A stretch of DNA of 39,074 nucleotides from NCBI GenBank assembly GCA_016939345.1, contig JAFGHG010000142.1, positions 1-39,074 on the forward strand, in the 5' to 3' direction. The DNA comes from Candidatus Omnitrophota bacterium (GTDB lineage: Bacteria; Omnitrophota; Gorgyraeia; Duberdicusellales; 4484-171). The notes under the pieces are model-generated. The model saw nothing but the letters and a program-made list of their open reading frames with translations, was not told the DNA's origin and ran no database searches. This document shows positions 2,381 through 38,134 of this stretch, one piece after another (positions within the stretch are counted from its first letter, which is position 1; each line of letters begins with the position of its first letter). A program made the position numbers and the translations under genes.

Positions 2381-4609
2381 ATGAAGCATCTTTCATCCTT
2401 TTTAAAGAGTGTTGTTTTTTTCCTTCTGTCTATCCTAATACTTTTAAGCCTTATCTCCTATAACCCCTCAGACATAAAATTTCTTAACTACCCTCCAAAA
2501 GGTTCGATATCTAATTTTGTAGGGATTGTCGGAGCCTACATTGCTTTTGCTCTTTTTTTTATCTTTGGATATGCCGCGTATTTTTTCCCTTTTTGTTTTG
2601 CCTGCCTTGGTTTAAACAAGCTGGAAATGATAAGGTTTTCCGGTCTTGGAAAAAGCCGCATCGTAAACGTCCTGGCCTTTACCTTCTTTATAGTTTTTCT
2701 TTCAGGGTTTATCGGGCTTTTTTTCTCAAGCGATACTGCAACCTTTAAATCTTCCGGGGTGATAGGATTTTTTCTAGGCGGATTTTTTAAGAAATATTTT
2801 GCTTTTAGTTCTTATATCATACTTTTTATACTTATGGCAGCATGCATGGTTGTATTCTTCGGCCTTTTCTTTATAGATTTTGTAAAGGCCTCGCGCAAAA
2901 TGTTCATAAGCATCTTTAACAGGATTAAGGAAAGAAGGCCTAAGGTCGAACCCAAACCAATAGTAAGAGAGCAGGTAAAAAAACGAGAAGGCGTAAAGGA
3001 AAAGATAAAAGAAGCTTTTTCGAAAAAGGAAAAAGTCAAGCCGGAGATAAAGATGTATGCTCCCAAAATAGAACCCCGGGAAAAGAAAGATGCCTTGTCC
3101 AGCGGCTTGGGTGTTGTTACTGCTTCGGCGACAGCTTCCAACAAAGAACAGATTCAGGATAAGATAAAGGATTTAGAAAACCAGCAGACCAAGACTTATG
3201 ATCCCAGAAATTATAAGTTGCCCCATGTATCATTATTAAAGGTGCCGCCCTTTCCTGATGCCCAGGAAACAAAAGAAGACATTGAGGCTAACATAAATAA
3301 CCTGGAAACCACTTTTTCTGATTTTGGAGTTGAGGCAAAAGTTGTAAGCGTACAAAAGGGCCCGGTTGTTACTATGTATGAGGTTTCTCCTCAATCTGGA
3401 ACAAAAATACAAAGGATATCTTCTTTAGCCGATGATATTGCTTTGGCCATGAAGTCGGCAAATGTAAGAATAGTCGCTCCTATACCAGGAAGAGGTACAA
3501 TAGGTGTGGAAATACCTAATTTAAAAAAACATCTTGTTTTTTTAAGAGAAGTCATTGAAGAAAAGATATTCAATCAGGCTTCTTCAAAGCTTACAATAGC
3601 GATAGGAAAGGATGTTTCAGGAAATCCTATCATAGCTAAATTGGATGATATGCCTCATCTTTTGATTGCCGGGGCAACCGGAGCCGGAAAAACAGTCTGC
3701 GTTAATTCTATAATATCTTCTATTCTTTTTAAGGCCAAGCCCGATGAGGTAAAATTCATCATGGTCGATCCTAAGATGGTCGAGCTGGCTTCATTTTCAG
3801 GCATACCCCATCTGATACATCCTATAATCTCTGAGGCAAAAAAAGCTTTTTTCGCTTTGAACTGGGCAGTTGAAGAGATGGAGAGAAGATACAGGATGCT
3901 AGCAGATTCTGGATCTCGCAATATAGATGTTTACAATAAGTCGAACCAAAAACTTCCTTACATTATAATAGTAGTTGATGAATTAGCAGACCTTATGATT
4001 GTAGCCAGGGAGAGTATAGAGACTGCCATACAAAGGCTGGCTCAGCTTTCCCGGGCAGTGGGAATACATCTGATTTTAGCTACTCAAAGGCCTTCTGTTG
4101 ATGTAATTACCGGGGTAATAAAAGCTAATTTTCCTGCCCGCATATCCTTTAAGGTTTCCTCAAAAGTTGATTCCCGTACAGTACTTGATATGATGGGGGC
4201 TGAGAAGCTTATCGGAAAAGGAGACCTTTTGTTTTTAAAGCCTGGAGCCATAAAGCTTATCCGGGCCCAAGGGTCATTCATAGACGACAGCGATATAGAA
4301 GTTTTGACTGATTTTATCCGAAAACAAGGCCGGCCGGTTTATGAAGAGGCTATTGTTGAAGGAGAAAAGAAACAAGCTTTAGACTTAGGAAGTGATGATT
4401 TATTTGAGGAAGCAGTAAAGATAGTTTTACGCACTAATCAGGCTTCGGCCTCTTTGTTGCAGCGCAGGCTAAGAGTTGGTTACACCAGGGCAGCCCGATT
4501 GCTTGATCTTATGGAGCAGGAAGGCATAGTAGGACCTTTTCGCGGAAGCAAAGCCCGCGAAATAATAGTAGATCCGGAAGTTTTTCTTGTTGAGAAAGGC
4601 TGGTCTTGA
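2381..4609 (+). CDS. ftsK: DNA translocase FtsK/SpoIIIE
   Basis: It has an N-terminal multi-TM region, a Lys/Glu/Pro-rich linker and a motor domain with Walker A (LLIAGATGAGKTV). The C-terminal gamma winged helix is present (LLQRRLRVGYTRAARLLDLMEQEGIV). Confidence 0.9.
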   Translation: MKHLSSFLKSVVFFLLSILILLSLISYNPSDIKFLNYPPKGSISNFVGIVGAYIAFALFFIFGYAAYFFPFCFACLGLNKLEMIRFSGLGKSRIVNVLAFTFFIVFLSGFIGLFFSSDTATFKSSGVIGFFLGGFFKKYFAFSSYIILFILMAACMVVFFGLFFIDFVKASRKMFISIFNRIKERRPKVEPKPIVREQVKKREGVKEKIKEAFSKKEKVKPEIKMYAPKIEPREKKDALSSGLGVVTASATASNKEQIQDKIKDLENQQTKTYDPRNYKLPHVSLLKVPPFPDAQETKEDIEANINNLETTFSDFGVEAKVVSVQKGPVVTMYEVSPQSGTKIQRISSLADDIALAMKSANVRIVAPIPGRGTIGVEIPNLKKHLVFLREVIEEKIFNQASSKLTIAIGKDVSGNPIIAKLDDMPHLLIAGATGAGKTVCVNSIISSILFKAKPDEVKFIMVDPKMVELASFSGIPHLIHPIISEAKKAFFALNWAVEEMERRYRMLADSGSRNIDVYNKSNQKLPYIIIVVDELADLMIVARESIETAIQRLAQLSRAVGIHLILATQRPSVDVITGVIKANFPARISFKVSSKVDSRTVLDMMGAEKLIGKGDLLFLKPGAIKLIRAQGSFIDDSDIEVLTDFIRKQGRPVYEEAIVEGEKKQALDLGSDDLFEEAVKIVLRTNQASASLLQRRLRVGYTRAARLLDLMEQEGIVGPFRGSKAREIIVDPEVFLVEKGWS

Positions 4610-5424
4610 TGCAGGAAATTTGCCGAAAGCTACGCCAGAAACGTAAAGAATTAGGTTACTCCATAGAACATGTGGTGGAAAAGACCAAACTGCACCCTTC
4701 AGTGATAAAGGACATTGAAGACTGTAACTTTGAAAATATAAGCAGTACATACTTAAAAGGGTTTATAAAGATTTATGCTTCATTTTTAGAGGTTGACACA
4801 AACCAGTCTGTAGAGGATCCGGAACTTGTTAAGCCGGATGTAAAAAAAATTTTTCAGCAGAAAACCTTACCGCAAAAGGAAAACATACAAAAAGATGTTC
4901 ATCAAAAAACATCTGCCCCCCAGAAAAGAAAGCCAAGGCCGGATTTAGCCAAGATAATCGTCGAAAGATTAAAGAAGATATCGCCAGAAGTTCGTAAAAA
5001 AATAGCTAAGGTTTTGATAGCCTTGCTGGTTGCCTGGTTGGTCTTTTCTTTAGGCAGGCTGGTTATTACAAAAGTCAAAAGTTTTTTTGCCAACAAGCCA
5101 AAAGCCGAGAAGACCAAAGAAACTGTTAATGATGAAAGGAGTATGGTTGATATCGAGCAGGGTCAGGAGATAACCGCATCTATTACAGCCAAAAAGAAAT
5201 GCTTTTTAAGGGTAACCGTAGACGGCAAGCTTTTATTTGAGGGGGTGCTTAATAACGGAGCCGTAGAAAGCTGGAAAGGCGTAAAAGAAATAGAATTTAA
5301 GATAAGCGACGGCTCTGCCGTTTATCTTGAAGTCAACGGAAAATCTATTCCTACCCTTTCTTCTATCCGAAAACCCATAAAGAGCCTTAAAATAACCCCA
5401 TCCGGAATATCCATCGATAAATAA
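4606..5424 (+). CDS. rodZ: RodZ-like cytoskeleton protein (XRE-type HTH, one TM, DUF4115-like C-terminus)
   Basis: Its start overlaps the ftsK stop (ATGA). It has an N-terminal HTH (LRQKRKELGYSIEHVVEKTKL), a TM segment (VLIALLVAWLVFSLG) and a C-terminal beta domain (FLRVTVDGKLLFEGVLNNG...YLEVNGKSI). Confidence 0.6.
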   Translation: MMQEICRKLRQKRKELGYSIEHVVEKTKLHPSVIKDIEDCNFENISSTYLKGFIKIYASFLEVDTNQSVEDPELVKPDVKKIFQQKTLPQKENIQKDVHQKTSAPQKRKPRPDLAKIIVERLKKISPEVRKKIAKVLIALLVAWLVFSLGRLVITKVKSFFANKPKAEKTKETVNDERSMVDIEQGQEITASITAKKKCFLRVTVDGKLLFEGVLNNGAVESWKGVKEIEFKISDGSAVYLEVNGKSIPTLSSIRKPIKSLKITPSGISIDK

Positions 5425-5438
5425 TATAATTAATAAGT

Positions 5439-5466
5439 CCGAAACCCGAATATCGAATTCCGAAGC
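5439..5466 (+). repeat. Four tandem heptamers, YCGAAnn (CCGAAAC CCGAATA TCGAATT CCGAAGC)
   Basis: CGAA occurs at 5440, 5447, 5454 and 5461, an exact 7-nt period. The repeat lies in the rodZ-rimO spacer and ends 9 nt before the rimO ATG. Confidence 0.75.
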
Positions 5467-5475
5467 AATTCTTAA

Positions 5476-6738
5476 ATGACCAAAATTCAAATGGCTAAGA
5501 AGACTTTCTCAATAATATCTCTGGGTTGTTTTAGAAACACCTATGATTCAGAGGTGATCATCAAGCGCTTTCAGAATAAAGGCTACAGGTATGTTTGCGA
5601 AGCTTCTCAAGCTCTGGATTTGATGATAATTAATACCTGTGGTTTTATTGAGGAGGCTAAGAAGGAGTCATTAACGCTTATTAGAGAGGCGTTATCTTTA
5701 AAGAGGAAGGGCAGGATAAAAAGAATTCTTGTTTCTGGATGTCTTTCCCAGCGTTACAGGAATGAGCTGAGAAAATCTTTGCCCCAGGTTGACGAGTTCA
5801 AAGGAGTAGAAGAATTTGAAATAGGATTTGAAAGCGGCTTGAAACTTACGACCAAAAACAGCGCTTTTGTAAAAATCTCTGAAGGTTGCATTAATTGCTG
5901 CAGTTTTTGCGCAATACCTTTGATAAAAGGAAGCCTAAAAAGCAGACCATCAAAGGATATTATCAGGGAGGTTAGATTTTTAAATGATAGGGGTGTTAAA
6001 GAGATAAATATAATCGGTCAGGATATTACCAGCTGGGGAAAAGACCTTGGTAAAAGCAGGGGGTTTAGCCGGCTTCTTGCCTCAATTGAGGAGGCCGCAG
6101 ATAAAGTTTCCTGGATAAGGCTTATTTATACTCATCCTAAGCATTTTAGCAGCGAGTTGATAGAAATGATAGGTAAAAGCGCTAAAATCTGCAATTATAT
6201 TGATTTGCCAATACAGCATATAAATGATAAAATTTTAAAGTCAATGAACCGCGGGATTTCCAGCGATAAGCTTATATCTTTGATAAAAAAAATAAGAAAG
6301 ACCATTCCCAAAGTCGCACTAAGGTCCTCGATAATCGTTGGTTTTCCCGGAGAAAACAATAAAGACTTTCAAGAATTAAAAGATTTTCTTAAATTTATCA
6401 AATTCGAGCGTCTCGGAGTATTTGTCTATTCCCGGGAAGAAGGCACCAGGGCTTATGATTTTGTTCCTCAGGTACACCCGGCAACAAAGAAAAAACGCCA
6501 ACGTTTATTAATGGAACAGCAAAAAGATATAGTTGCAGAGTTTAATAAAGGATTGCTTGATAAAAAAATATCCGTTTTGATTGAAGAAAGGCAAAACAGC
6601 ACTTTTATCGGCCGCAGCGAATATGATGCTCCGGAGGTAGATGGGCAGGTCTTTGTTAAGAGAAAAGGATTAAAAATCGGCCATATTTACCAGCTGAAAA
6701 TCACTGATTATTTTGGTTATGACCTTATAGCCGAATAA
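5476..6738 (+). CDS. rimO: Radical-SAM methylthiotransferase, RimO-like (ribosomal protein S12 methylthiotransferase)
   Basis: It has an N-terminal MTTase domain (SLGCFRNTYDSE), a radical-SAM cluster motif (CINCCSFC) and a C-terminal TRAM-like segment. Separating RimO from MiaB by eye is not certain. Confidence 0.7.
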   Translation: MTKIQMAKKTFSIISLGCFRNTYDSEVIIKRFQNKGYRYVCEASQALDLMIINTCGFIEEAKKESLTLIREALSLKRKGRIKRILVSGCLSQRYRNELRKSLPQVDEFKGVEEFEIGFESGLKLTTKNSAFVKISEGCINCCSFCAIPLIKGSLKSRPSKDIIREVRFLNDRGVKEINIIGQDITSWGKDLGKSRGFSRLLASIEEAADKVSWIRLIYTHPKHFSSELIEMIGKSAKICNYIDLPIQHINDKILKSMNRGISSDKLISLIKKIRKTIPKVALRSSIIVGFPGENNKDFQELKDFLKFIKFERLGVFVYSREEGTRAYDFVPQVHPATKKKRQRLLMEQQKDIVAEFNKGLLDKKISVLIEERQNSTFIGRSEYDAPEVDGQVFVKRKGLKIGHIYQLKITDYFGYDLIAE

Positions 6739-11216: not shown

Positions 11217-11405
11217 ATGAAAAAAATCATTTTTATATTATCAATCTGTATTTTTTTCTGCGGTTGCTTACCCAAGAAAGTTAATCCTGAATGGAAGGAC
11301 AGCAACTTAACCAAGCAGAAGTACTTAAAAGGCAAAATGAAGCGGGCAGAACTCCATGATAACACGAAAAGGTTTTTGCATAGGCTCTGGGACCCTTCCT
11401 GGTAA
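11217..11405 (+). CDS. Small putative lipoprotein (62 aa)
   Basis: It has an N-terminal KK, a hydrophobic core and an FFCGC lipobox-like cysteine. There is no SD. An extended -10 (TGGTATAAT) ends 6 nt before the ATG. Confidence 0.4.
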   Translation: MKKIIFILSICIFFCGCLPKKVNPEWKDSNLTKQKYLKGKMKRAELHDNTKRFLHRLWDPSW

Positions 11406-11547: not shown

Positions 11548-11955
11548 ATGAAAGCAAAGCTGGCAGAAGAACTTCTACTTATAACTCAAAATAGAGTAGG
11601 AAAGTTGGCAGAGATCTCAAGGACTATTAAAGATAATGGTATTAATATTATGGCTATTTCGGCATGGGCATTTGACGACCAGGCTTTTTTCAGAATTGTC
11701 GCTTCCGATCATATAAAAGCAAAAGAGATCCTTGAGAGCATAGGAAAGGTCGAGATAAAGAAAATAGTTATTGCTGAGATGCCCGATGAAGTCGGCCAGC
11801 TTCTCGAATTAGCTTCCCGGCTTAAAGACAACGATATAGACCTTAATTATGTTTACGGTACTACTGCTGAGGTGGGCAAGCCGGCAACCATTATCTTTTC
11901 TTCCAACAATGACATCAAAGCCCTTGATGTCATTGCTGCTAAATCAGCTATTTAG
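11548..11955 (+). CDS. ACT-domain (amino-acid-binding) protein, tandem ACT
   Basis: This 135-aa protein shows two ACT-like repeats (ITQNRVGKLAEISRTIKDNGINI and EMPDEVGQLLELASRLKDNDIDL). The SD is strong (GAGGAGG) and a consensus promoter lies upstream. Confidence 0.65.
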   Translation: MKAKLAEELLLITQNRVGKLAEISRTIKDNGINIMAISAWAFDDQAFFRIVASDHIKAKEILESIGKVEIKKIVIAEMPDEVGQLLELASRLKDNDIDLNYVYGTTAEVGKPATIIFSSNNDIKALDVIAAKSAI

Positions 11956-11974: not shown

Positions 11975-13183
11975 ATGACAATTCTCTTTCCAGAAGGTTT
12001 TTTTTGGGGTGCTGCACTTTCAAGTTACCAATCTGAAGGAGGAAACATTAATACTGATTGGGCTCATTGGGAGAAGGAGCACGCCCTGGAGAAGGCTGCT
12101 GCTGCCTGTGATCATTATAACCGCTTTAAAGAAGATTTTAATCTTGCCAGATCAATGCATCTAAATTCGCTTCGTTTGTCATTTGAATGGGCCAGGGTAA
12201 ATCCAGAACCCGATGTTTTTTCTTCAGAAAGTCTTCAGCACTACAACCAGGTTGTCGATGAACTTTTAAATTTTAAGTTAAAGCCGTTTCTTACCCTTCA
12301 TCATTTTACAAATCCGGATTGGTTTATGAAGAAAGGCGGCTGGTTGAATCCGGCTAACATCGATTTTTTTATAAGCTATGTAAGGAATATCGCCCAGGCT
12401 TTAAAAGGGAAAGTTGAATATTGGATAGTATTTAACGAGCCCCTGGTCTATATTTATCACGGATATATAACCGGTATCTGGCCCCCCGGCATCAGAAACT
12501 TTGGCCAGGCAAAAAAAGCCATGGATAATATATTAAAAGCCTATGCTTACAGCTACCAGGAGATAAAACAAACCTCCAGCCGGGAGTTTCAGCCCCTGGT
12601 TTCTATTGCCAAGCACATCCGTTTTTTTTCTCCCTGCACTCAAGGATCGGGCCTGCTTAATTGCTTCAGCAGCTTCTTAAGGGATAAATATTTTAATATC
12701 AATCTTATCGAGCACTTAAAAAAGAGAAAAATCTTAGATTATCTGGCTATAAACTACTATTGCAAAGAATATGTGCAGTTTAAAGGCATATTCGGCAGAG
12801 AGTGCAGCCATGATTTTCATCCCGAGAGAAGAAATAACGTAGGCTGGTATGTTTCTCCCGAGGGTTTTTATGATACCTTGATAAGGCTAAAAAGATACCG
12901 GCTTCCTATTTTTGTCAGCGAGAACGGGACTGCCGAGAGCCAGGAGTACCTTTATAAAGAATATCTAGAGGCTCATCTTCAATCTTTGGCCAGAGCCTGT
13001 TCAAAAGGAGTGGACTTGCGAGGCTATTTTTGGTGGTCTTTGTTTGATAATTTTGAATGGGAAAAAGGATACGGCCCAAGATTCGGCTTGTATGAGGTCG
13101 ACTATAAAGATTTCAGGCGCTACCCAAGGCCTTATTCTTCCTTTTATGCTGATGTTTGTAAATACAATAAGATCGAAGTATAA
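11975..13183 (+). CDS. Glycoside hydrolase family 1 beta-glucosidase
   Basis: It has the GH1 N-terminal signature FPEGFFWGAALSSYQSEGG, the acid/base NEP (VFNEPLVY) and the nucleophile ENG (FVSENGTAE). Confidence 0.85.
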   Translation: MTILFPEGFFWGAALSSYQSEGGNINTDWAHWEKEHALEKAAAACDHYNRFKEDFNLARSMHLNSLRLSFEWARVNPEPDVFSSESLQHYNQVVDELLNFKLKPFLTLHHFTNPDWFMKKGGWLNPANIDFFISYVRNIAQALKGKVEYWIVFNEPLVYIYHGYITGIWPPGIRNFGQAKKAMDNILKAYAYSYQEIKQTSSREFQPLVSIAKHIRFFSPCTQGSGLLNCFSSFLRDKYFNINLIEHLKKRKILDYLAINYYCKEYVQFKGIFGRECSHDFHPERRNNVGWYVSPEGFYDTLIRLKRYRLPIFVSENGTAESQEYLYKEYLEAHLQSLARACSKGVDLRGYFWWSLFDNFEWEKGYGPRFGLYEVDYKDFRRYPRPYSSFYADVCKYNKIEV

Positions 13184-13209: not shown

Positions 13210-13914
13210 ATGGTTAAGTATTTAATATTTGGGTTAACACTTGTTCAGTTGTTTAATATTATGCCTTCAGCAGAAGCTAAAAGCATTGAAGAAAGGCTTC
13301 AAGGTAAGAAAAAAATTTCTTACAGCGTGTCTTTTAACGGCATGTCTTCAGGAGATATCGAATGGGAATACCTTGGAAAAGAAAAGATTGACGGCAAAGA
13401 AGTAGAGGTGCTTTCCGTAAATTCAGACACTACAATACTCAATTTATTCGATCTTACCAGCAAAGAGAAAGTTTATCTAGACCCCAGCACTTATCTGCCG
13501 TATAAGGTTGAGAGAGATTTAAAGGTCTTTGGCAAGGATGAAGTTGTCCAGGAGTATTATAATCAGGAAAAAGGTTATGTGAAGCTGGTCAGAAATGACG
13601 GCCAGGAAAAGGTTGATATCCTAAAACAGGATAAACCCATACATAACATACTTGCCCTGCTTTATTTCTTCCCCGATAATATAGCCTTCGAGTCAGGTAA
13701 ATGGCTTGATTTTAACCTGCCTACGCAGAAGATAAAGATCAAGATGGTAAAGGAAAGGTTTCTCAATGTTGACAGCCAAAAGAAAGAGACCTATTTTTTA
13801 CTGGGCCGGGGGGCGAAACATTTTAGCCTCTGGCTGGATAAAAAAAATAGCCTGCCTTTGAGATTGGAATTTGTCTTCCCGGTGGGAAAAGTTGTAATCA
13901 GCCCTAAAGATTAA
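13210..13914 (+). CDS. Secreted hypothetical protein (possibly DUF3108-like)
   Basis: It has a signal peptide (LFNIMPSAEAK) and beta-rich sequence. The family assignment is tentative. Confidence 0.55.
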   Translation: MVKYLIFGLTLVQLFNIMPSAEAKSIEERLQGKKKISYSVSFNGMSSGDIEWEYLGKEKIDGKEVEVLSVNSDTTILNLFDLTSKEKVYLDPSTYLPYKVERDLKVFGKDEVVQEYYNQEKGYVKLVRNDGQEKVDILKQDKPIHNILALLYFFPDNIAFESGKWLDFNLPTQKIKIKMVKERFLNVDSQKKETYFLLGRGAKHFSLWLDKKNSLPLRLEFVFPVGKVVISPKD

Positions 13915-13939: not shown

Positions 13940-14962
13940 CTATTTGGCCACTATCAGGGAATTTCTGCCGCCGAAATGGTCATTTTCAGTCAGCTTATTA
14001 TAGGGATCAGGAAACCATTTATTCGAGGCAACAAACTTATAACGGTAAGTGCCTTTTTCAAGAGGAAGATTGATGCTCCAGATATCGCTGCTTACCCGGT
14101 TCAGCCTGTAAGCTTCTGTTAGTTTCCAATTATTAAAATCACCAACCACATATACATTGTCGAAGTCTTTGCCTTTTAAGAACAGTGATGCCCAGGTGTT
14201 CCTGTTGGTAATACCTACAATTTCATCAGTCAGGCCGCTGAAGTCTTCGGCCCCCCGGGATTTGGGTTTATAATCGAATATGTTCTTGCCTTTTGAGGCA
14301 GCTTCCCTTAGATGAACATTGGTGCGGATACTTGATTTAAGCAGTAATCTATCCAGGCGGTTCTTTACCTTTTGAATAAAGTCGCGCGAAAAAGTCGAGC
14401 GGTTGTCTACTTGGTTAAGCAGGAAAAAGGGTGTCGGTGAAGTACCGTTAAACTCTTTAACCATTATCATAATATTTTTTAGTATTTCCATTCCCTGCAG
14501 TGAAAAATCACAGGCCATAAGAGGTATAAGGGCATAGTTGCTTGCGACCAGGGAATTAAGAGTTAATATCCCAAGATTAGGCGGACAGTCTACCACAACG
14601 TATTCGAATTCTTTTAAATATTTGCTTGCCAGCATGGCTATGATTTTTAATTTATCCGGATTATTGGATAATTTATGTTCTAAAGAAGCAAGTCCTATGG
14701 AAGAGGATATAAGCGAAAAATTGTCATTTATAACGGTTGTGCATTTATCGAGCTCGAAAGGCTCATTAACGGCCACTTTTTCAGCTATATCAGCTATAGT
14801 GACTTCGGTATTACCTGACAGAGCAAAACTTGCATGACCTTGAGGGTCAAGGTCGATCAAAAGAACTTTATGCCCTTTTTTACTTAGGCCGGCAGACAAA
14901 TTAACAGCGGTTATGGTCTTTCCGCAGCCGCCTTTTTGGTTTAAGACAGATATAACATTCAT
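13940..14962 (-). CDS. ParA/MinD-family ATPase fused to a C-terminal CBM48 / AMPK-beta-type glycogen-binding module
   Basis: A deviant Walker A (VLNQKGGCGKTITAVNL) and DLDPQG mark the ParA part. The C-terminus VYVVGDFNNWK...GTYRYKFVASNKWFPDPYN...FGGRNSLI resembles the AMPK1_CBM/CBM48 consensus. I chose the ATG at 14962, which is preceded by AAAGGAGG, not the track start at 15007. Confidence 0.85.
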   Translation of the reverse strand: MNVISVLNQKGGCGKTITAVNLSAGLSKKGHKVLLIDLDPQGHASFALSGNTEVTIADIAEKVAVNEPFELDKCTTVINDNFSLISSSIGLASLEHKLSNNPDKLKIIAMLASKYLKEFEYVVVDCPPNLGILTLNSLVASNYALIPLMACDFSLQGMEILKNIMIMVKEFNGTSPTPFFLLNQVDNRSTFSRDFIQKVKNRLDRLLLKSSIRTNVHLREAASKGKNIFDYKPKSRGAEDFSGLTDEIVGITNRNTWASLFLKGKDFDNVYVVGDFNNWKLTEAYRLNRVSSDIWSINLPLEKGTYRYKFVASNKWFPDPYNKLTENDHFGGRNSLIVAK

Positions 14963-15657
14963 ATATCCTCCTTTTTCGAAAGAGTTATGTCTTTGATAAT
15001 AAGCCATTTTTTCCGCCAGTCACTGGTTATTACTTTTATATCATCGGCTTCCGGGTCCGGACGGGAAAAAAATACTTTGATCTGTTTTATTCTGGATAAA
15101 TTAACCTTATTGATTTTGTTAGTATCCAGAGGAAGGGGTATTTTTATGAATGATCCTGAATTTTGAGAGTCGATTTTTACCTGGACCGGAAGCCTTACGT
15201 TCGAAAAGAAATTAGCATCTTTAACGATTACATCAATAGATAAAGGCTCTGTTGCGTTTTTTATCCAAAGATTAAGGTTGTTGGCATAAAGATTTTGTTC
15301 TTTATTGAAGTTAAAGGCCACGCCTGTTTTATCTGCCTCTGGTATCAATAGAAAGACGGAGGAGCTGGTTTTTTTAAAGAGGTCTTTGTCCTGGTTTATA
15401 GGTACTATAGAGGAAAACTGGTTTGTCTCGATCAGATCATGCTGGCTTGATACTTCTTGGGATGATTTAGGTATGAAGACAAGTTCGAAGTTAAGCAAGA
15501 AAAGAGAGATAATGATAGCTATGCCTACAGGAATAAAAATAAAAAATATTTTTTTCTTACCTGTCTTTTTACTGGAAGCAGTTGAAAAAAAAGCTTCCTG
15601 TAGGCGTTTAGAATCTACGTCTACGTAGTCAAAAAATGACCCCGGCCCTTTATTCAC
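14959..15657 (-). CDS. Single-pass membrane protein with a beta-rich extracytoplasmic domain (possibly CBM/jelly-roll-like)
   Basis: It has a basic N-terminal tail, a TM segment (IFFIFIPVGIAIIISLFLL) and a C-terminal beta-rich domain. Its TGA stop overlaps the ParA-CBM48 ATG (ATATGA). The start is GTG with no SD, so the start position is uncertain. Confidence 0.55.
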   Translation of the reverse strand: MNKGPGSFFDYVDVDSKRLQEAFFSTASSKKTGKKKIFFIFIPVGIAIIISLFLLNFELVFIPKSSQEVSSQHDLIETNQFSSIVPINQDKDLFKKTSSSVFLLIPEADKTGVAFNFNKEQNLYANNLNLWIKNATEPLSIDVIVKDANFFSNVRLPVQVKIDSQNSGSFIKIPLPLDTNKINKVNLSRIKQIKVFFSRPDPEADDIKVITSDWRKKWLIIKDITLSKKEDI

Positions 15658-24018: not shown

Positions 24019-24108
24019 ACACAAGATTAGTGAATTGTATCTAGTGATTTTATTACGAAACACCAGATTCAAAAGTGGTAAATTTTATAACATAATAAGG
24101 AGTTGATT

Positions 24109-25683
24109 GTGACCAAGAAAATGCAAATTTATGATACAACCTTAAGAGACGGTTCCCAGACAGAAGGCATTTCTTATTCTCTTATGGATAAGATCAATAT
24201 TGCCAAGCAACTGGATTCTTTCGGTATTGATTTCATAGAAGGTGGATGGCCGTTTTCAAACCCCAAGGATACTGAGCTGTTCAATTACTTTAAGAAGAAT
24301 CCCTTAAAGCATTCTAAAATTACGCCTTTTGGCTCAACTGCTCATCCTTCTAACCCTGCCTCCAAAGATAAGAATCTCCTGGCTTTGATAAAGGCTGATA
24401 CCGAATATGTAACTATTTTCGGTAAAACCTGGGATCTTCATGTCAGAGAGGTCTTAAAGATAAAACTTGAGGATAACTTAAAGATTATTTCTGAGAGCAT
24501 TAAGTTTCTTGTTAAAAAAGGAAAAAGGGTCTTTTATGATGCCGAGCATTTTTTTGACGGCTATAAGGCTAACCCGGAGTATGCTCTTTTGAGCTTGAGG
24601 GCTGCGGTTGAGTCCGGTGCTGAATTGCCTGTGCTTTGTGACACCAATGGCGGAAGCCTGCCCTGGGAAATCAAAGCAATAACCGAGGCAGTTAAAAAAG
24701 AGCTTGGAATAAAAGATTTTGGCATCCATTGCCATAATGATTTGGGTATGGCAGTGGCAAATTCCGTTATTACTGTTGGTTCGGGTTGCTGTCATATTCA
24801 GGGTACTATTAATGGTTACGGCGAACGCTGCGGCAACGCTGATTTGGTTACTATTATTGCAGTATTGCAGGTCAAGATGAATGAAAAAGTGGTTACTCCG
24901 GCCAAGATCAGCGAATTGACCCACTTATCAAACTATGTCAGCGAGCTGAGCAATATGGCCAATAAGGATAATCATCCTTTTGTAGGCAGAAGCGCTTTTG
25001 CCCACAAAGGAGGTATACATATCGATGCAGTCACTAAGAACCGCCAGGCCTATGAGCACATAAACCCGGTTCTTGTCGGCAACACCACCCGCTTTGTAGT
25101 TTCCGAACTTGCCGGGAAAACAACCTTAGTGGTAAAAGCAAAAGAATTGGAATTTGATCTTGATAAAAAGTCCAAAAAAGCTAAAAAGATATATAAGTTG
25201 CTACAAAAGCTGGAAAGCCAGGGTTATCAGTTCGAAGCTGCCGAGGGCTCATTTAAACTCTTGCTTCAAAAGGAATTTAGAAGATATAAAAGATTCTTTG
25301 ACCTTTTGGGTTTTAGGGTCATAATCGAAAGGCGTGATGATAACCGCCTTATTTCAGAAGCAACTATCAAGATGAGGATTAACGGTAAACTGGAACATAC
25401 GGCCTCAGAAGGCGATGGACCGGTTAATGCTTTGGATGGCGCTTTGCGAAAAGCCCTTCTAAAATACTATCCTAAACTCTCAGAAATGCACCTTACTGAT
25501 TTTAAAGTCCGGGTGCTTGATGAGAAAGCCGGAACAGCTGCCAAAGTAAGAGTTCTTATCCAGTCCCAGGATAAAGATGAAAATTGGTCGACTATCGGCG
25601 TTTCCGAGAACATCATCGAAGCTTCCTGGGAAGCCTTGGTAGACTCTGTTGAGTATAAGCTGCTAAAAGATTTCTATAAGTAA
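24109..25683 (+). CDS. cimA: (R)-citramalate synthase (long CimA/LeuA-related type with LeuA_dimer C-terminal domain)
   Basis: The sequence MQIYDTTLRDGSQTEGISYS...IEGGWPFSNPKD is characteristic of the CimA branch rather than LeuA. I chose the GTG at 24109, 6 nt after the AAGGAG SD. The track TTG at 24103 abuts the SD, and the ATG at 24121 is also possible. Confidence 0.78.
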   Translation: MTKKMQIYDTTLRDGSQTEGISYSLMDKINIAKQLDSFGIDFIEGGWPFSNPKDTELFNYFKKNPLKHSKITPFGSTAHPSNPASKDKNLLALIKADTEYVTIFGKTWDLHVREVLKIKLEDNLKIISESIKFLVKKGKRVFYDAEHFFDGYKANPEYALLSLRAAVESGAELPVLCDTNGGSLPWEIKAITEAVKKELGIKDFGIHCHNDLGMAVANSVITVGSGCCHIQGTINGYGERCGNADLVTIIAVLQVKMNEKVVTPAKISELTHLSNYVSELSNMANKDNHPFVGRSAFAHKGGIHIDAVTKNRQAYEHINPVLVGNTTRFVVSELAGKTTLVVKAKELEFDLDKKSKKAKKIYKLLQKLESQGYQFEAAEGSFKLLLQKEFRRYKRFFDLLGFRVIIERRDDNRLISEATIKMRINGKLEHTASEGDGPVNALDGALRKALLKYYPKLSEMHLTDFKVRVLDEKAGTAAKVRVLIQSQDKDENWSTIGVSENIIEASWEALVDSVEYKLLKDFYK

Positions 25684-29621: not shown

Positions 29622-31493
29622 ATGAAGAGACCTGTAATCATTGTTTTGATTGGTATTGTGGTGGCAGCCGGAATATTTTTTGCTGTGCAGACCTTTATCA
29701 AGCCGGGCAAGATCGGCGATATCGAATCTTTAGTGCCTTCCGAAGCAATTTATTACATTTATTCTTATCAGCTTGGCCAAAAAATAGAGGATTTTTGTAA
29801 CTCCGATTTTTTCTTAAAGATTAGCAACCTTTCTTTTTACCAGGAGTATTTACAGCCTTCCATTGACAAGAAAGAAAAGCTTTATAAAAATCTTTCTCAA
29901 GTTTACAACAGCGATTCAGCTCTGGCAGTATTTTCTCCGGGAATTGTCGCGCCTTCAGGCGGAATAGAGCCTATGATCGAGCCTGGAAAATTTATGTTAT
30001 TAGTGCGTATGGATACAAAGAAAAATATAAAAAAGACAATCGGAGATCTTTATCTTTTACTAAATGAGAAGGAAGATGTCTCTTATTCTACTTATAAAGG
30101 CATAAAGATAACCCATTATCAAATTCCTTTAGACAAAAGCAAGTTTCCCTTTCCTGATCTAAAAATAAGCTATGCTGTTTTAGGAGATATTTTAGTCAGC
30201 TCTAATACTGATGAGCTGTTAAAGCAATCAATAGACCTGTTTAATAAAAGCAGTACTGATTCTTTGCTCAATGATGAGGTATATAAAAAAATATCAGGCA
30301 AATATGCCGACAAAAAGAAAGATTCGTTTTTCTGGACTTTTATCAATTATAAGCGCTATACTGAAAAATTTCTCGCCCAGGTAGATGATATGTTTATTGA
30401 TCAGGCTCAGAATGAAAAGATGAGGGATTTTATTGAGAGTTTCATAGATGTTTCTGCCGGCATTATTTCCTATCTCGGATATGATAGCAGCAAATCTGGT
30501 TTTGTAGGCGAAAGCTATCAGCTTTATGATAAAAGTAAAGACGATCATGGCCTTTTAGAGATATCTTCTTCCAAAGGAAGCAAGAATGACCTGACCGCAG
30601 TGATTCCTCCTCAGTTTTTTGTTTATTTTGGCTGTTCGGGCAATATCTCCGGCTACTGGAACTATTTCAGCAAATTGATGATGTCTTCAGAGGAAATTAA
30701 ACAAAGCGCTATGGGAGATAGCATGTATGCAGCAGATAAACAGCCGTCTTTTTCTAAAACCATAAAAAGTTTGGAAACCTATTTAGGTTTAAGCATTGAG
30801 AAGGATGTTATGCCTTTGCTTGGTAATGATTTCAGCTTTGTAATCTCCGATTTAGAAGAAGTTTCTCTTGCTCCTAAAAGCGGGCAGATAAATCCCATGC
30901 AGCTTTTTCCCACGCCCATGCCTACGCTTAGCCTTTTGTTCGAAACAAAAGACCAGTCTTCGGCCGAGAAACTCAAGAGTTTGATAATTGAAAAGGTTAC
31001 CCAATTAAGTCCATCTCAGCCGGAGTCAGAACCATTTTTAAGCATAGCTGAAGATAGTTATGCTGGAGTTAATTTAAGTGTTATTTCGATAAAAGAGTTG
31101 CCGTTTCATCCGGTCTGTTTTGTTCTTAATGATAAGTGTATAATCTCTTCTACCACGGACCATGCTAAAAAAATAATCGATACTTCAAAACAAAGCTCTA
31201 ACAGCCTGGAAAACAACCTTGATTTTTCTTTTGATCCAAATAAGATTTTAAAAGGAAGTGCTGCCACTTTGATAGTTAAGTTTGCTGATTTAATAGATGC
31301 TATTGCTCAGACAAAAATCGTAAATTTTGCCAAGCCGAGCGTTGCTTTATTTAGCCAGGGTAAAGTTACTACCAATGATATCGATGACATAATCGATATT
31401 CTGGATGATATAAGTATTATTGCCCAGGCCAATGACATTACAGCAGATGGCACAGGCAGCGGGCTGTTTTATATTGGTATAGAGGGCTTATAG
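29622..31493 (+). CDS. Membrane-anchored hypothetical protein (DUF3352-like, tentative)
   Basis: It has an N-terminal TM (VIIVLIGIVVAAGIFFAV) and a large soluble domain. The SD AAAGGAGG is present. The family call comes from general architecture only. Confidence 0.55.
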   Translation: MKRPVIIVLIGIVVAAGIFFAVQTFIKPGKIGDIESLVPSEAIYYIYSYQLGQKIEDFCNSDFFLKISNLSFYQEYLQPSIDKKEKLYKNLSQVYNSDSALAVFSPGIVAPSGGIEPMIEPGKFMLLVRMDTKKNIKKTIGDLYLLLNEKEDVSYSTYKGIKITHYQIPLDKSKFPFPDLKISYAVLGDILVSSNTDELLKQSIDLFNKSSTDSLLNDEVYKKISGKYADKKKDSFFWTFINYKRYTEKFLAQVDDMFIDQAQNEKMRDFIESFIDVSAGIISYLGYDSSKSGFVGESYQLYDKSKDDHGLLEISSSKGSKNDLTAVIPPQFFVYFGCSGNISGYWNYFSKLMMSSEEIKQSAMGDSMYAADKQPSFSKTIKSLETYLGLSIEKDVMPLLGNDFSFVISDLEEVSLAPKSGQINPMQLFPTPMPTLSLLFETKDQSSAEKLKSLIIEKVTQLSPSQPESEPFLSIAEDSYAGVNLSVISIKELPFHPVCFVLNDKCIISSTTDHAKKIIDTSKQSSNSLENNLDFSFDPNKILKGSAATLIVKFADLIDAIAQTKIVNFAKPSVALFSQGKVTTNDIDDIIDILDDISIIAQANDITADGTGSGLFYIGIEGL

Positions 31494-31501
31494 GTGTTTA
31501 G

Positions 31502-33001
31502 ATGAGAAAAATATTTATTTTTGATACGACACTTCGCGATGGCGAACAGGCTCCTGGTGCAGCTCTCAGCTCAGGACAGAAGCTTGAAATTGCTTTTGCC
31601 CTTGAGAACCTGGGAGTGGACATAATTGAAGCCGGCTTTCCTATTGCCAGTCCTGATGATTTTAAGGCTGTGGATTTGGTCGCCGCGAGCATAAAGAAAA
31701 GCGGAGTCTGCGGTTTGGCTCGATGCATAAAGAAAGACATCGAAGCCGCAAGAGATTCATTGAAAAAAGCCAAAAAACCCCGTATACATATTTTTCTTGC
31801 TACTTCCAAGATACACCTTAAGTATAAGTTTAAAAAGGCTGAAAGCGAGATAATCGAGCTGGCAAGAAAGTCTGCTAGGCTAGCCAGGAAATACTGCGAT
31901 GATGTAGAGTTTTCTCCTGAAGATGCCACCAGGTCAGACAGAGATTTTCTTTACAAGGTAATTGAGACCGCTGTAAATGAGGGAGCAAAGACTATAAACA
32001 TTCCCGATACTGTGGGGTACAGCTATCCCCAGGAGATTTTTTCCCTGATCAGCGACATAGGTAATAATGTACCAAATATAGCCAAGGCTGTTATTGCTAT
32101 ACATTGTCATAATGATCTTGGTTTGGCAACAGCCAATTCTCTTTCAGGAGTTTTGGCCGGGGTAAGGCAAGTCCACTGCACTATAAACGGTATCGGAGAA
32201 AGGGCAGGAAACGCTTCTTTGGAAGAGCTGGTCATGGCTTTGAAGGTAAGAAAAGATGTGTTTAAGGATTTTTATACTCAAATAAACACAAAAGAAATTT
32301 ACCGGGCATCTCATCTTGTAAGCAAATTGACCGGTTTTGTCGTGCCGCCGAACAAAGCTATTGTCGGAGCGAATGCCTTTGCTCATGAATCGGGGATTCA
32401 TCAGGATGCCATACTAAAAAAACGCATAACCTACGAAATAATGAACCCCCGCGATGTAGGCATTGCCCGGACCCAGCTGATCCTCGGAAAGCATTCAGGC
32501 AGGCATGCCCTTGCTAAAAGGCTTAAGGAGCTGGGATTTCGGCTTAACGAGCAGGGGATAAACGATATTTTTAAAAGGTTTAAAGAGCTTGCTGATAAAA
32601 AGAAAGATATTTTTGACGATGATTTGATAGCTTTGGCGGAAGAAGAGACCCGCACAAGAAAGAAAACCTTTGAACTTGTTTCCATAAGGGCAGTTACCGG
32701 AACAGACATAGTCCCTGAAGCAACGGTACAAATAAAGCATAAACGAAAAATCTCTCAAGCCAGTTCCAGCGGTGATGGCCCGGTAGACGCCTGTTATAAG
32801 GCTATAGATAAGATAACCAATTTAAGGCCTAAACTGCTTAATTACAAACTGGATGCCGTAACAAAGGGAAAGGATGCCCAGGGTATGGTGCAAGTGCAGA
32901 TTAAGCTCAAGGGCGTTTCTATGGCCGGTAGAGGCGCAAGCACCGACATACTTGAAGCTTCAGCAAAAGCTTATTTGGATGCCATAAACAAAATACTTTA
33001 G
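31502..33001 (+). CDS. leuA: 2-isopropylmalate synthase
   Basis: It has IFIFDTTLRDGEQAPGAAL, HCHNDLGLATANSL and a C-terminal LeuA_dimer domain. Confidence 0.9.
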   Translation: MRKIFIFDTTLRDGEQAPGAALSSGQKLEIAFALENLGVDIIEAGFPIASPDDFKAVDLVAASIKKSGVCGLARCIKKDIEAARDSLKKAKKPRIHIFLATSKIHLKYKFKKAESEIIELARKSARLARKYCDDVEFSPEDATRSDRDFLYKVIETAVNEGAKTINIPDTVGYSYPQEIFSLISDIGNNVPNIAKAVIAIHCHNDLGLATANSLSGVLAGVRQVHCTINGIGERAGNASLEELVMALKVRKDVFKDFYTQINTKEIYRASHLVSKLTGFVVPPNKAIVGANAFAHESGIHQDAILKKRITYEIMNPRDVGIARTQLILGKHSGRHALAKRLKELGFRLNEQGINDIFKRFKELADKKKDIFDDDLIALAEEETRTRKKTFELVSIRAVTGTDIVPEATVQIKHKRKISQASSSGDGPVDACYKAIDKITNLRPKLLNYKLDAVTKGKDAQGMVQVQIKLKGVSMAGRGASTDILEASAKAYLDAINKIL

Positions 33002-33041: not shown

Positions 33042-33497
33042 ATGAAATACATTATCAATTTAATAGCTCTTCTTATCCTGGGCCTTATGATCTGGGGTGT
33101 GGTAAAGTTCAAGGATAGCAGCACTTACTATTCTTGGCAGGGTAGTGCCAAGAAGGTAAAAAAGACCGCTGATGATTTTATTCAAGCCCGGAAAAACACC
33201 ATTCAGATGGAATTGAATCCGGAACGCAAAAGGCCACTGACTTTTATCAAAAAAGAAGAAATGCTCAGGATCTATGTTCCCGATGTCTTTGAAGGTTTTA
33301 GCGAAAAAGCCTGGGCAGATTTCTGGGATTTTATATATAGTCCGGTCAAGGACAATAGCGGGACTTTTGCGACAAAAAAACAAAGGCCTAAAGAAGAAAT
33401 AGAAGCTTACCTGATATATCGTTATCCCAAGCCATTTTCTTATTTCAGGCAGGACCACTGGTTTTATTTTTGGGAGATAGTGCTTGGTGAAGATTAA
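33042..33497 (+). CDS. Hypothetical membrane-anchored protein (151 aa)
   Basis: It has an N-terminal TM (IINLIALLILGLMIWGVV) and a Trp/Phe/Tyr-rich C-terminal part. I recognised no family. Confidence 0.45.
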   Translation: MKYIINLIALLILGLMIWGVVKFKDSSTYYSWQGSAKKVKKTADDFIQARKNTIQMELNPERKRPLTFIKKEEMLRIYVPDVFEGFSEKAWADFWDFIYSPVKDNSGTFATKKQRPKEEIEAYLIYRYPKPFSYFRQDHWFYFWEIVLGED

Positions 33498-37627: not shown

Positions 37628-38134
37628 ATGAAAAAGATGTTATTAATTGGTTTTTGCTTTATTCTTTTTGTATCAATATCACTTTTCTCGGAGAACATGT
37701 CTGGCAATCTCTTTGTCGATAATATTACAAAGGTTAACGAATTCGTAAACAGCCAGCGGCCCTTGATGATAGGTGATATTATCTACAGGACTAAACTTGC
37801 AATCAATGACGAATCCTACGGCTACTATTGGCTTAAACTAAGGTATATAGGCTATGACAGCAGCCAGATCAAAATACGCTATGAGTTCAGCAAGGATGTT
37901 CCTGAAAACGAGGGCAAGATCTATGAGGAGGTTTCAACACTTATTATGCCTTTGGATGAGCAAGAAAAAACTTATATAAAGATACATCAGCTTCCTAAGC
38001 TGCCTGAAGATGCCACAGTTCCGGCTAAGACTTTAGTGGTAAGCGTCTATGACCGCGACAAGAGCCTGATAAAAGTAGAAGAATTCGGAAAATACAAGTC
38101 CTTCGTAGATAAAGAAAAGGAAATAGAAAAATAA
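37628..38134 (+). CDS. Secreted hypothetical protein (168 aa)
   Basis: It has a signal peptide and is tightly spaced with its neighbours (13 nt upstream, 1 nt downstream). The SD AGGAGG is present. Confidence 0.5.
   Translation: MKKMLLIGFCFILFVSISLFSENMSGNLFVDNITKVNEFVNSQRPLMIGDIIYRTKLAINDESYGYYWLKLRYIGYDSSQIKIRYEFSKDVPENEGKIYEEVSTLIMPLDEQEKTYIKIHQLPKLPEDATVPAKTLVVSVYDRDKSLIKVEEFGKYKSFVDKEKEIEK

Follow-up and report, generated by a model that had tools for sequence, protein, structure and literature searches.

We analyzed a stretch of 39,074 nucleotides (39 kb; hereafter the window) from an uncultured Candidatus Omnitrophota bacterium (contig JAFGHG010000142.1 of assembly GCA_016939345.1), and we focused on two adjacent genes located on its reverse strand. 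The downstream gene (13940-14962) encodes a protein of 340 amino acids (aa) in which a ParA/MinD-type ATPase domain is followed by a CBM48 carbohydrate-binding module (CBM) of the glycogen-binding kind. We refer to this protein as ParA-CBM48; its limits were set from the reading frame (340 codons plus stop), the starts of its homologs, Pfam and AlphaFold2. The upstream gene (14959-15657) starts with GTG and encodes a 232-aa protein predicted to cross the membrane once, which we call the partner. The locus is a two-gene module that is conserved across Omnitrophota.

The two genes overlap by 4 nt. The ATG of ParA-CBM48 (14962-14960) and the TGA of the partner gene (14961-14959) share the sequence ATGA (14962-14959), and a Shine-Dalgarno-like AAAGGAGG (14967-14974, reverse strand) lies 4 nt 5' of the ATG, within the end of the partner gene. 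Because the Met of MNVIS/MKVIS is the start in 31 of the 33 homologs that we aligned, we consider this ATG to be the true start, and not position 15007, which had been given in the list of open reading frames (ORFs). The homologs of the partner also begin at the place equivalent to its GTG. When we scanned the surroundings of the operon for promoters and terminators, the scores were no better than those of shuffled sequence, and the sole plausible promoter-like site near the operon is located at 15731-15702 on the reverse strand.

The initial annotation of this locus, made from the sequence alone, had described an ORF at 13940-14962 carrying the motifs KGGCGKT and DLDPQG, whose ATG overlaps the stop codon of an upstream 232-aa gene for a protein with a short basic tail, one membrane helix and a beta-rich C-terminal domain. 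All of this was confirmed. The motifs occupy residues 10-16 and 37-42, the overlap is evident by direct reading, and the upstream protein has a Lys-rich N-terminal tail, a single hydrophobic helix and, in its AlphaFold2 model, a beta-rich C-terminal domain.

A ParA-family ATPase fused to a CBM48 module

Residues 1-255 of ParA-CBM48 (14198-14962, reverse strand) make up a Soj-like ParA/MinD-type ATPase domain, as judged by phmmer against the PDB, by Foldseek and by the conserved catalytic residues. Its deviant Walker A (14915-14935, same strand), read directly, includes the signature lysine K10 and is invariant in the alignment of homologs. Pfam assigns the protein to AAA_31 (1.3e-40, residues 1-169) and CbiA (2.6e-19), and CBP_BcsQ also matches at 3.2e-9, which exceeds its cut-off. 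The PDB sequences closest to residues 1-255 are ParA-ATP (8ray, 8.3e-33), Thermus Soj (1e-24) and H. pylori Soj (1.5e-24), while MinD (about 1e-14; 2.5e-14 for 1g3q) and McdA (about 5e-11) are more distant. We modeled the 340-aa protein with AlphaFold2 using 33 homologs, obtaining a predicted local distance difference test score (pLDDT) of 90.7 and a predicted template modeling score (pTM) of 0.89. Foldseek matched this model to Soj/ParA structures with E-values of 1e-21 to 1e-23 and template modeling (TM) scores of 0.90-0.92 (normalized by target length), to McdA (6non/6nop) with E about 1e-16, and to BcsQ with E about 1e-12.

Conservation was assessed in 62 fusion loci, which comprise those found when the last 136 residues of ParA-CBM48 were used to scan GTDB, with a single genome for each species, together with the window and seven context loci. 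Of the proteins encoded there, 61 are full-length and 60 are distinct. The signature lysine K10, the Walker A residues K15 and T16, the switch I/Walker A' aspartates D37 and D39 (of DLDPQ) and the Walker B residue D125 (of VVDCPP) are conserved throughout the complete fusions (58 of 58). Judged by its sequence, ParA-CBM48 is an active-looking ParA-family ATPase in which all catalytic motifs are intact.

Two cysteines are also retained. The Cys within KGGCGKT, at a position where ParA proteins usually have Val, is present in all 58 complete fusions, and C126 (of DCPP) in 57 of them. In the aligned proteins the invariant Walker A Cys is a family signature of the ParA-CBM48 fusions. We also compared the fusions with B. 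subtilis Soj, in which R189 lies within 'DARTN' and R218 within 'NIRLSEA'. At the position aligned to R189, 59 of 60 fusions have Arg. At the R218 position, 34 of 60 have Lys or Arg, and the window protein has His.

The C-terminal part of the protein, residues 256-340 (13943-14197, reverse strand), is a predicted beta-sandwich of the CBM48/AMPK1_CBM type according to Pfam, phmmer against the PDB and AlphaFold2. The initial annotation had attributed the last ~85 residues to this type, and the match to AMPK1_CBM (PF16561) bears it out: it covers residues 268-337 with an E-value of 3.7e-10 and 40.3 bits, the curated cut-off being 26.8. The match to CBM_48 is barely above its own cut-off (8e-5; 23.3 bits against 22.4), and in relatives the AMPK1_CBM score reaches 61.7 bits. 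Searched against the PDB, the last 96 aa retrieved the CBMs of AMPK beta1 and beta2 as the top matches (6.7e-5), followed by GH13 amylases, GlgB, LSF1 and SEX4. In the AlphaFold2 model residues 256-339 form an all-beta domain of seven strands (pLDDT 87-94), which in the window protein comes directly after the last ATPase helix (236-254) without a flexible linker. The Foldseek matches of the whole chain were dominated by the ATPase domain, and none was to the CBM part separately.

To number the CBM alignment we anchored it on S108, T134 and T148 of rat AMPK beta1. W279, K309, W316, F330, G331 and N334 of ParA-CBM48 then align to W100, K126, W133, L146, G147 and N150 of AMPK beta1. Among the 60 distinct fusions, the positions of W279 and W316 are Trp in every case (60/60 each), so that the glucan-binding aromatics whose conservation the initial annotation had proposed to check are indeed present. 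The other positions are Lys or Arg at K309 (60/60), Phe or Tyr at F330 (60/60), Gly at G331 (59/60) and Asn or Asp at N334 (60/60). In AMPK beta1, glycogen binding is lost in the W100G and K126Q mutants and is weaker in W133L and G147R (PMC6274970). By its sequence, this module is a genuine CBM48 of the AMPK beta type, in which the residues aligned to the alpha-glucan site are kept under strong constraint and glucan binding itself is predicted.

The membrane partner

The partner has no match in Pfam, NCBIfam or PADLOC. A single-sequence search with the 232-aa protein found only itself, and a profile built from seven of its positional equivalents found 12 clusters; from these two results we conclude that the family is fast-evolving.

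The N-terminal region of the partner, predicted to be cytoplasmic, contains the conserved motif DSKRLQEAFFS (residues 15-25; 15583-15615, reverse strand), followed by a Lys-rich tract, and in the partner alignment D15, F23 and F24 are invariant. A predicted transmembrane helix follows at about residues 37-59 (15481-15549, reverse strand); the maximum of hydropathy begins at residue 37 (mean 3.0), and AlphaFold2 places a helix at 41-56. Five Lys and Arg residues precede this helix in the window and one follows it (median over the partners, 6 before and 2 after), and the N side is the richer in Lys and Arg in 48 of 50 partners. This bias predicts that the N-terminus is inside and the C-terminus outside.

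The remainder of the protein is a C-terminal beta-sandwich (residues 81-228; 14974-15417, reverse strand), predicted to be periplasmic and similar to a CBM jelly roll. Its AlphaFold2 model, built with 12 homologs, is beta-rich over residues 81-228, with pLDDT of about 76-94 except in a loop at about 201-220. Foldseek related this ectodomain to CBM29, CBM16, CBM61, CBM11, SGBP-B and NDUFAF1, with E about 1e-4 and TM scores of 0.45-0.56 (target-normalized), and all of these matches except NDUFAF1 are type-B CBM jelly rolls. Since the rest of the partner is predicted to lie in the membrane or the periplasm, only its first 25-40 residues, a short helix bearing the conserved motif and then the Lys-rich tract, could touch the ATPase.

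The initial annotation had also suggested surveying whether the fusion and the membrane protein occur together, and within Omnitrophota they do. In the seven context loci of close homologs (L001-L007, representing six different homologs), a Pfam-less gene for 216-240 aa is located directly upstream on the same strand in 7 of 7 cases, and across all fusion loci 50 of 62 have an upstream same-strand ORF for a membrane protein of 150-280 aa. The partners are of two main types. Type 1, found in the window, has about 220-240 aa and the motif DSxRLxxxFFS, and accompanies 340-aa fusions; in 11 of 15 of these close loci the genes overlap through ATGA. Type 2, of about 187-205 aa and with MDKKDIYEHLAKIYLDASSKKKK, accompanies longer fusions. 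Partner type thus co-varies with fusion type, and partners intermediate between the two types occur at L016, L023, L031, L036 and L042. When both types were compared, hhalign gave a probability of homology of 5%, for which reason we claim for them a shared architecture and a short motif, and not homology. A hydrophobic residue followed by x-x-x-[FY][FYL], then poly-Lys and then one hydrophobic helix, is shared by 46 of the 48 distinct N-termini of partners; a pattern search identified 44 of them, and L013 and L014 were recognized by eye. We consider this N-terminal motif a candidate ATPase-contact peptide.

Two further genes deserve mention here. At L015, a partner-like gene (4372-5238, reverse strand) with the N-terminal motif ELSKTYFANNKK is divergent to the fusion instead of being upstream on the same strand. 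Its C-terminal domain matches Pfam CBM27 above the cut-off (1.6e-7) and also the mannanase galactose-binding-like domain. At loci of the Desulfobacterota/Syntrophaceae type, the fusion is followed by a conserved gene for a 145-192-aa protein that starts with MPFIRKRRIWWEPV and has a basic N-terminal peptide (L019, 2392-2904; L052, 6557-6994; L058, 6661-7098; L059, 6557-6994; L061, 6618-7196). No Pfam domain was found above threshold in this protein, which is a candidate for the alternative partner of the Desulfobacterota-type fusions.

Distribution of the fusion and its gene neighborhood

The fusion is not restricted to this contig, as a survey of the kind proposed in the initial annotation revealed. 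At least 120 clusters at 90% identity carry PF16561; the best 120 have 45-100% identity and 310-357 aa, and every named cluster among them is labeled Omnitrophica or Omnitrophota. Dozens of Omnitrophota species in the GTDB scan hold the fusion, including the complete genome of Ca. Velamenicoccus archaeovorus LiM. The labels of the metagenome-assembled genomes (MAGs) at the fusion loci also include Syntrophaceae, Thermodesulfobacteriota, 'delta proteobacterium', Latescibacterota and Planctomycetota. When 1.84 billion representatives at 50% identity were searched with a profile, the best 150 (E <= 1e-61) were mostly ParA proteins with a second, C-terminal match. Eight long proteins with two matching stretches were analyzed with Pfam, and all eight consist of ParA, a Pfam-free linker of about 100-350 aa and a C-terminal AMPK1_CBM; the two long-linker clusters whose taxonomy was recovered are labeled Nitrospirota and Leptospirillia. 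Across all variants with linkers, which reach about 350 aa, the labels comprise Nitrospirota, Desulfobacterota and Latescibacterota. An assembly chimera is ruled out by the at least 120 clusters, the dozens of species and the majority of these 150 representatives. In databases the fusions currently go only under the names 'AAA family ATPase', 'chromosome partitioning protein', 'ParA family protein' and 'hypothetical protein'.

The CBM48 is at the C-terminus in all members of the family, regardless of linker length. The window subfamily is the compact, linkerless form, while most of its Omnitrophota relatives have an insert of 20-40 aa, which falls between residues 255 and 256 in the numbering of the window protein and is wholly absent in the window subfamily. 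In the type-2 Omnitrophota fusions, this insert between ATPase and CBM contains a conserved charged helix with the approximate consensus LEKRMKEILKEELPKL. Some very long proteins, namely P0134 (1812 aa), P0271 (6207 aa), P0166, P0249 and P0274, match the CBM48 portion of the profile 4-19 times in tandem.

We then clustered the 628 genes neighboring the fusion loci. The top recurrent family, level with the type-2 partner, is GH57, present at 29 loci in this census; within the fetched flanks a GH57 gene is found in 30 of 62 loci. The order GH57, partner, fusion, all on one strand, occurs in 24 loci, with the GH57 gene ending 620-960 nt before the ParA start. In Ca. V. archaeovorus, for example, GH57 (3093-4646; Pfam, 1.4e-64) is followed by the partner (4757-5335) and by the fusion (5341-6453; AMPK1_CBM, 8e-17). 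This GH57 protein matches a characterized GH57 amylopullulanase at 2.6e-87, from residue 2 and without an N-terminal extension; the structure of the matched enzyme has been described (PMC12106739). The Velamenicoccus enzyme has no signal peptide, from which we deduce that it is probably cytoplasmic.

Other alpha-glucan genes are also found close to the fusion. L003 and L007, which belong to the window's subfamily, have a GH57 cluster 1-5 kb away that includes, besides DUF4912, an AmyA-type enzyme, another GH57 and a branching enzyme of GH57 with BE_C. In L064, a Latescibacterota locus, two glycogen-synthase-like genes with GT4/GT5 starch-synthase domains and a GH57 branching enzyme with BE_C come after the fusion. 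The co-occurrence of the fusion with alpha-glucan genes, another check proposed in the initial annotation, was therefore observed at the loci of relatives, in the form of GH57 amylopullulanase-type, GH57 branching-enzyme and GT4/GT5 genes. Glycogen synthesis has been reported to be encoded in Omnitrophota MAGs (PMC8542988).

Upstream of the block formed by GH57, partner and fusion, and on the same strand, 12 loci have a gene for an outer-membrane porin of the Alginate_exp family (L020, 1326-2768; L017, L022, L030, L032, L033, L035, L038, L043, L046, L050 and L055). At L017 the porin gene is directly upstream of the partner. The neighborhood census included no conserved synthase, inner-membrane channel or ABC transporter.

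Several other genes of the window recur with the module. A DUF3108 gene (13210-13914, forward strand) is convergent to ParA-CBM48, 25 nt from its stop, and DUF3108 is found beside the module at many Omnitrophota loci, including L001, L004, L020 and L040. A cytoplasmic GH1 gene (11975-13183, forward strand) and a small ACT-domain gene (11548-11955, forward strand) recur downstream of the module at 11 loci; in relatives they are often accompanied by a patatin/cNMP-binding gene, which is absent from the window. A small unlisted ORF (11218-11405, forward strand), beginning MKKIIFILSICIFFCGCLPKK, has a lipoprotein-like signal with a lipobox, and its position matches that of a 62-aa gene in L001. 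Farther away, three forward-strand ORFs (29622-31493, 33042-33497 and 37628-38134; 623, 151 and 168 aa) have no Pfam match. Two HMGL-like/LeuA_dimer paralogs (24103-25683 and 31502-33001, forward strand), located in a stretch of ilv/leu/aro biosynthesis genes, are probably synthases of the citramalate or isopropylmalate type.

Proposed function and competing explanations

We compared the module with the known systems built on ParA/MinD ATPases and with known granule-binding proteins. ParA-CBM48 has the same fold as Soj/ParA (Thermus 1wcv/2bek, H. pylori 6iub, ParA-ATP 8ray) at about 30% identity, and both have the deviant Walker A with its signature lysine, the switch aspartates, the Walker B and the position aligned to R189. 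Unlike Soj/ParA, it has no ParB/parS and has an added C-terminal CBM48, a membrane protein as partner and the invariant Walker A Cys. In concept, ParA-CBM48 appears most like the orphan ParA systems for cargo (McdA/McdB, PpfA, ParC, PomZ and MipZ), in which a ParA-family ATPase likewise serves a body other than DNA and adjoins a small, fast-evolving partner; the charged N-terminal peptide of our partner is another feature common to these systems. In these systems, however, the partner holds the cargo specificity, whereas here the ATPase carries the module that binds the cargo or surface, and a membrane anchor and a predicted periplasmic domain belong to the partner. No carboxysome or chemotaxis genes were found near the ParA-CBM48 loci.

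The architecture also resembles MinD/MinE. The surface-binding element is at the extreme C-terminus of the ATPase, where dimerization would provide avidity, and the small partner could act, as MinE does, via a short N-terminal peptide at the membrane. Unlike the amphipathic membrane helix of MinD, this C-terminal element is predicted to be an 85-aa glucan-binding beta-sandwich, and there is no minC or minE. The CBM of AMPK beta (1z0m, 4yef, 4y0g) is the top sequence match of the module, which keeps the positions aligned to W100, K126, W133, G147 and N150; in AMPK the CBM is carried by the scaffold subunit of a kinase, while the present module is bacterial and sits on a P-loop ATPase. PhaM and PhaP, which act on polyhydroxybutyrate (PHB) granules, embody the same concept of a granule-binding protein linked to a scaffold for distribution at division, but have no sequence or fold relation to ParA-CBM48, and PhaM is not an ATPase. 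Finally, BcsQ and TadZ/CpaE are members of the ParA/MinD family that serve membrane machines; the CBP_BcsQ match is much weaker than that to Soj, and the census found no bcs or tad genes in the conserved neighborhood.

Direct assignment to an established system was rejected in each case that we considered. A chromosome-partition system (ParABS) was discarded, as the neighbor is a membrane protein and no ParB motif is nearby: GERRxRA is absent from every ORF of the window and of the 87 fetched loci, and the neighborhood census contained no ParB cluster. The module is not MinCDE, its C-terminus being a CBM48 instead of an amphipathic helix and its neighbors being lpxA-like, tRNA methyltransferase, DUF3108 and GH1 genes. 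Nor is it a bacterial tyrosine kinase (BY-kinase, CapB/Wzc): at most 2 Tyr are present in the last 25 residues of any fusion, the partner has one transmembrane helix and lacks a Wzz domain, and the NCBIfam tyrosine-kinase matches are far below their cut-offs. Among the defense systems of PADLOC, there was just a P-loop-level match (E 9.7e-4, residues 9-39) and none for the partner. McdAB was also rejected, with no McdB or carboxysome genes in the window or in related loci; that likeness is functional and architectural only.

We are fairly confident that ParA-CBM48 is an alpha-glucan-binding ATPase of the ParA family that works with a membrane partner. On balance, and with more caution, we lean toward a family of models in which glucan granules are tethered, positioned or partitioned by an ATP-switched bivalent binder together with its membrane-anchored partner. 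ATP binding would lead the ATPase domain to dimerize through its signature lysine, as in Soj and MinD. The dimer would bear two CBM48 modules, by which weak monovalent binding to glycogen could become strong and bivalent, comparable to the membrane-targeting helix of MinD. The cytoplasmic tail of the partner would then bind this dimer and/or stimulate hydrolysis, in analogy to the N-terminal peptides of ParB, MinE and McdB. Through such ATP cycling, we infer, cytoplasmic alpha-glucan granules would be tethered, spaced or partitioned relative to the membrane; if the dimer also binds DNA, the nucleoid could be the alternative reference for the granules. The module is likely to work with the cytoplasmic GH57 enzyme, of the amylopullulanase type, that is encoded in the same operon in many relatives. 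The interpretation offered in the initial annotation, a system dedicated to glycogen granules, is supported by these data, and the terms 'positioning' and 'segregating' are the part of it that we infer.

We offer a more specific version of this model only tentatively. The surface of the glycogen particle might itself be the matrix on which a ParA/MinD-type ATPase cycles, and would then join the nucleoid of ParA and the membrane of MinD as a third such matrix, with the partner as a membrane-anchored, MinE-like activator.

Several observations weigh against a granule-positioning function. The partner is predicted to be mostly periplasmic, which a simple granule-positioning model neither needs nor explains. 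The arrangement also departs from that of canonical ParA systems, where the cargo carries the partner that stimulates the ATPase: in the present module it is the ATPase that binds the cargo, and the partner is a membrane protein, which leaves 'cargo' and 'matrix' undefined. The low hhalign probability between both partner types points in the same direction, as does the absence of this partner from the fusions outside Omnitrophota. The 39-kb window itself has no alpha-glucan gene, and the nearby GH1 belongs to a beta-glycosidase family. Lastly, most Omnitrophota are reported to be ultra-small (PMC10066038), and in such cells the need to position granules is not obvious.

In a first competing explanation, the CBM48 is, as in the AMPK beta subunit, a regulatory input and not a handle for cargo, and ParA-CBM48 is a glycogen-sensing switch. 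Glycogen occupancy would modulate an ATP switch aimed at the membrane partner, and the output, an envelope process such as glycan uptake, envelope remodeling or division, would be delivered via the partner's periplasmic CBM-like domain. CBMs of the AMPK beta type, to which this one belongs, are known to sense glycogen; the window subfamily is linkerless and its model has a pTM of 0.89, suggesting a fixed orientation able to couple both domains allosterically; the partner is predicted to be mostly extracytoplasmic; and an Alginate_exp-type porin precedes GH57 on the same strand in 12 loci. However, in most relatives the ATPase and CBM are connected by long, variable, Pfam-free linkers of 20-350 aa, which fit a tether better, and the fusions outside Omnitrophota keep the CBM yet do not have the membrane partner. 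We regard a sensing switch as unlikely.

The 24 loci with the one-strand order GH57, partner, fusion speak for another explanation, in which ParA-CBM48 would be a coat or scaffold on glycogen gated by energy charge. In such a scheme, the ATP-bound dimer would coat glycogen, or recruit or exclude the co-operonic GH57 amylopullulanase, and a drop in ATP would cause the coat to dissociate and degradation to start; its role would be access to the store and not spatial positioning. Pfam detects no CBM in the GH57 enzyme itself, which is of the amylopullulanase type, and the binding of ParA-family proteins to surfaces is known to be ATP-dependent. Nevertheless, the window's own subfamily is not adjacent to GH57, the membrane partner is left without a role, and there is no evidence for contact between GH57 and ParA. 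We consider this scheme rather less likely still.

The porin genes and the CBM-like ectodomain of the partner could alternatively belong to a trans-envelope apparatus for glycan uptake or export, placed by ParA-CBM48 as a localization factor similar to BcsQ or TadZ/CpaE, with the CBM48 gripping the cytoplasmic end of the alpha-glucan chain. Both the CBP_BcsQ match above its cut-off (3.2e-9) and the Foldseek match to BcsQ (E about 1e-12) would agree with this. Against it, the similarity to Soj/ParA is far stronger, the neighborhood has neither a conserved synthase nor a conserved inner-membrane channel or ABC transporter, and the porin gene is about 0.3 kb from GH57 in L020 and absent at type-1 loci, all of which make such a role improbable. 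An ordinary Soj for chromosome or plasmid partition with an accessory domain, suggested by the nearest solved relatives and by the basic residues aligned to Soj R189 (59/60) and R218 (34/60), is highly implausible given the absence of an adjacent parB and of the ParB motif from all 87 fetched loci and the window, the conserved membrane-protein neighbor, a contig with housekeeping genes (pnp, ftsK, ilv, leuA, aro) that is not plasmid-like, and the strong constraint on the glucan-contact residues.

The tethering, positioning or partitioning of glucan granules by an ATP-switched binder is the explanation that we prefer. In the full-text literature available without subscription, we found no description of a ParA protein with CBM48, AMPK1_CBM or glycogen(-binding), and two genome papers on Omnitrophota contain nothing on the ParA-CBM48 module.

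ParA/MinD ATPases are the general means by which bacteria place chromosomes, plasmids, carboxysomes and chemoreceptor arrays, and glycogen is the most widespread carbon store in bacteria; to our knowledge, no known system organizes or partitions it. A ParA that carries its own glycogen-binding module would bring to this repertoire a new class of cargo and also a new design, in which the specificity for the cargo or surface is on the ATPase instead of on the partner. If the glycogen surface is indeed where this ATPase cycles, the module would be the first dedicated ATP-driven system for organizing or partitioning bacterial glycogen granules; it would belong to the core of Omnitrophota and would occur, with different partners, in Nitrospirota, Desulfobacterota and Latescibacterota. 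Omnitrophota is an uncultivated phylum of ultra-small, possibly predatory bacteria, and the module, which appears to be core in them, may illuminate their physiology.

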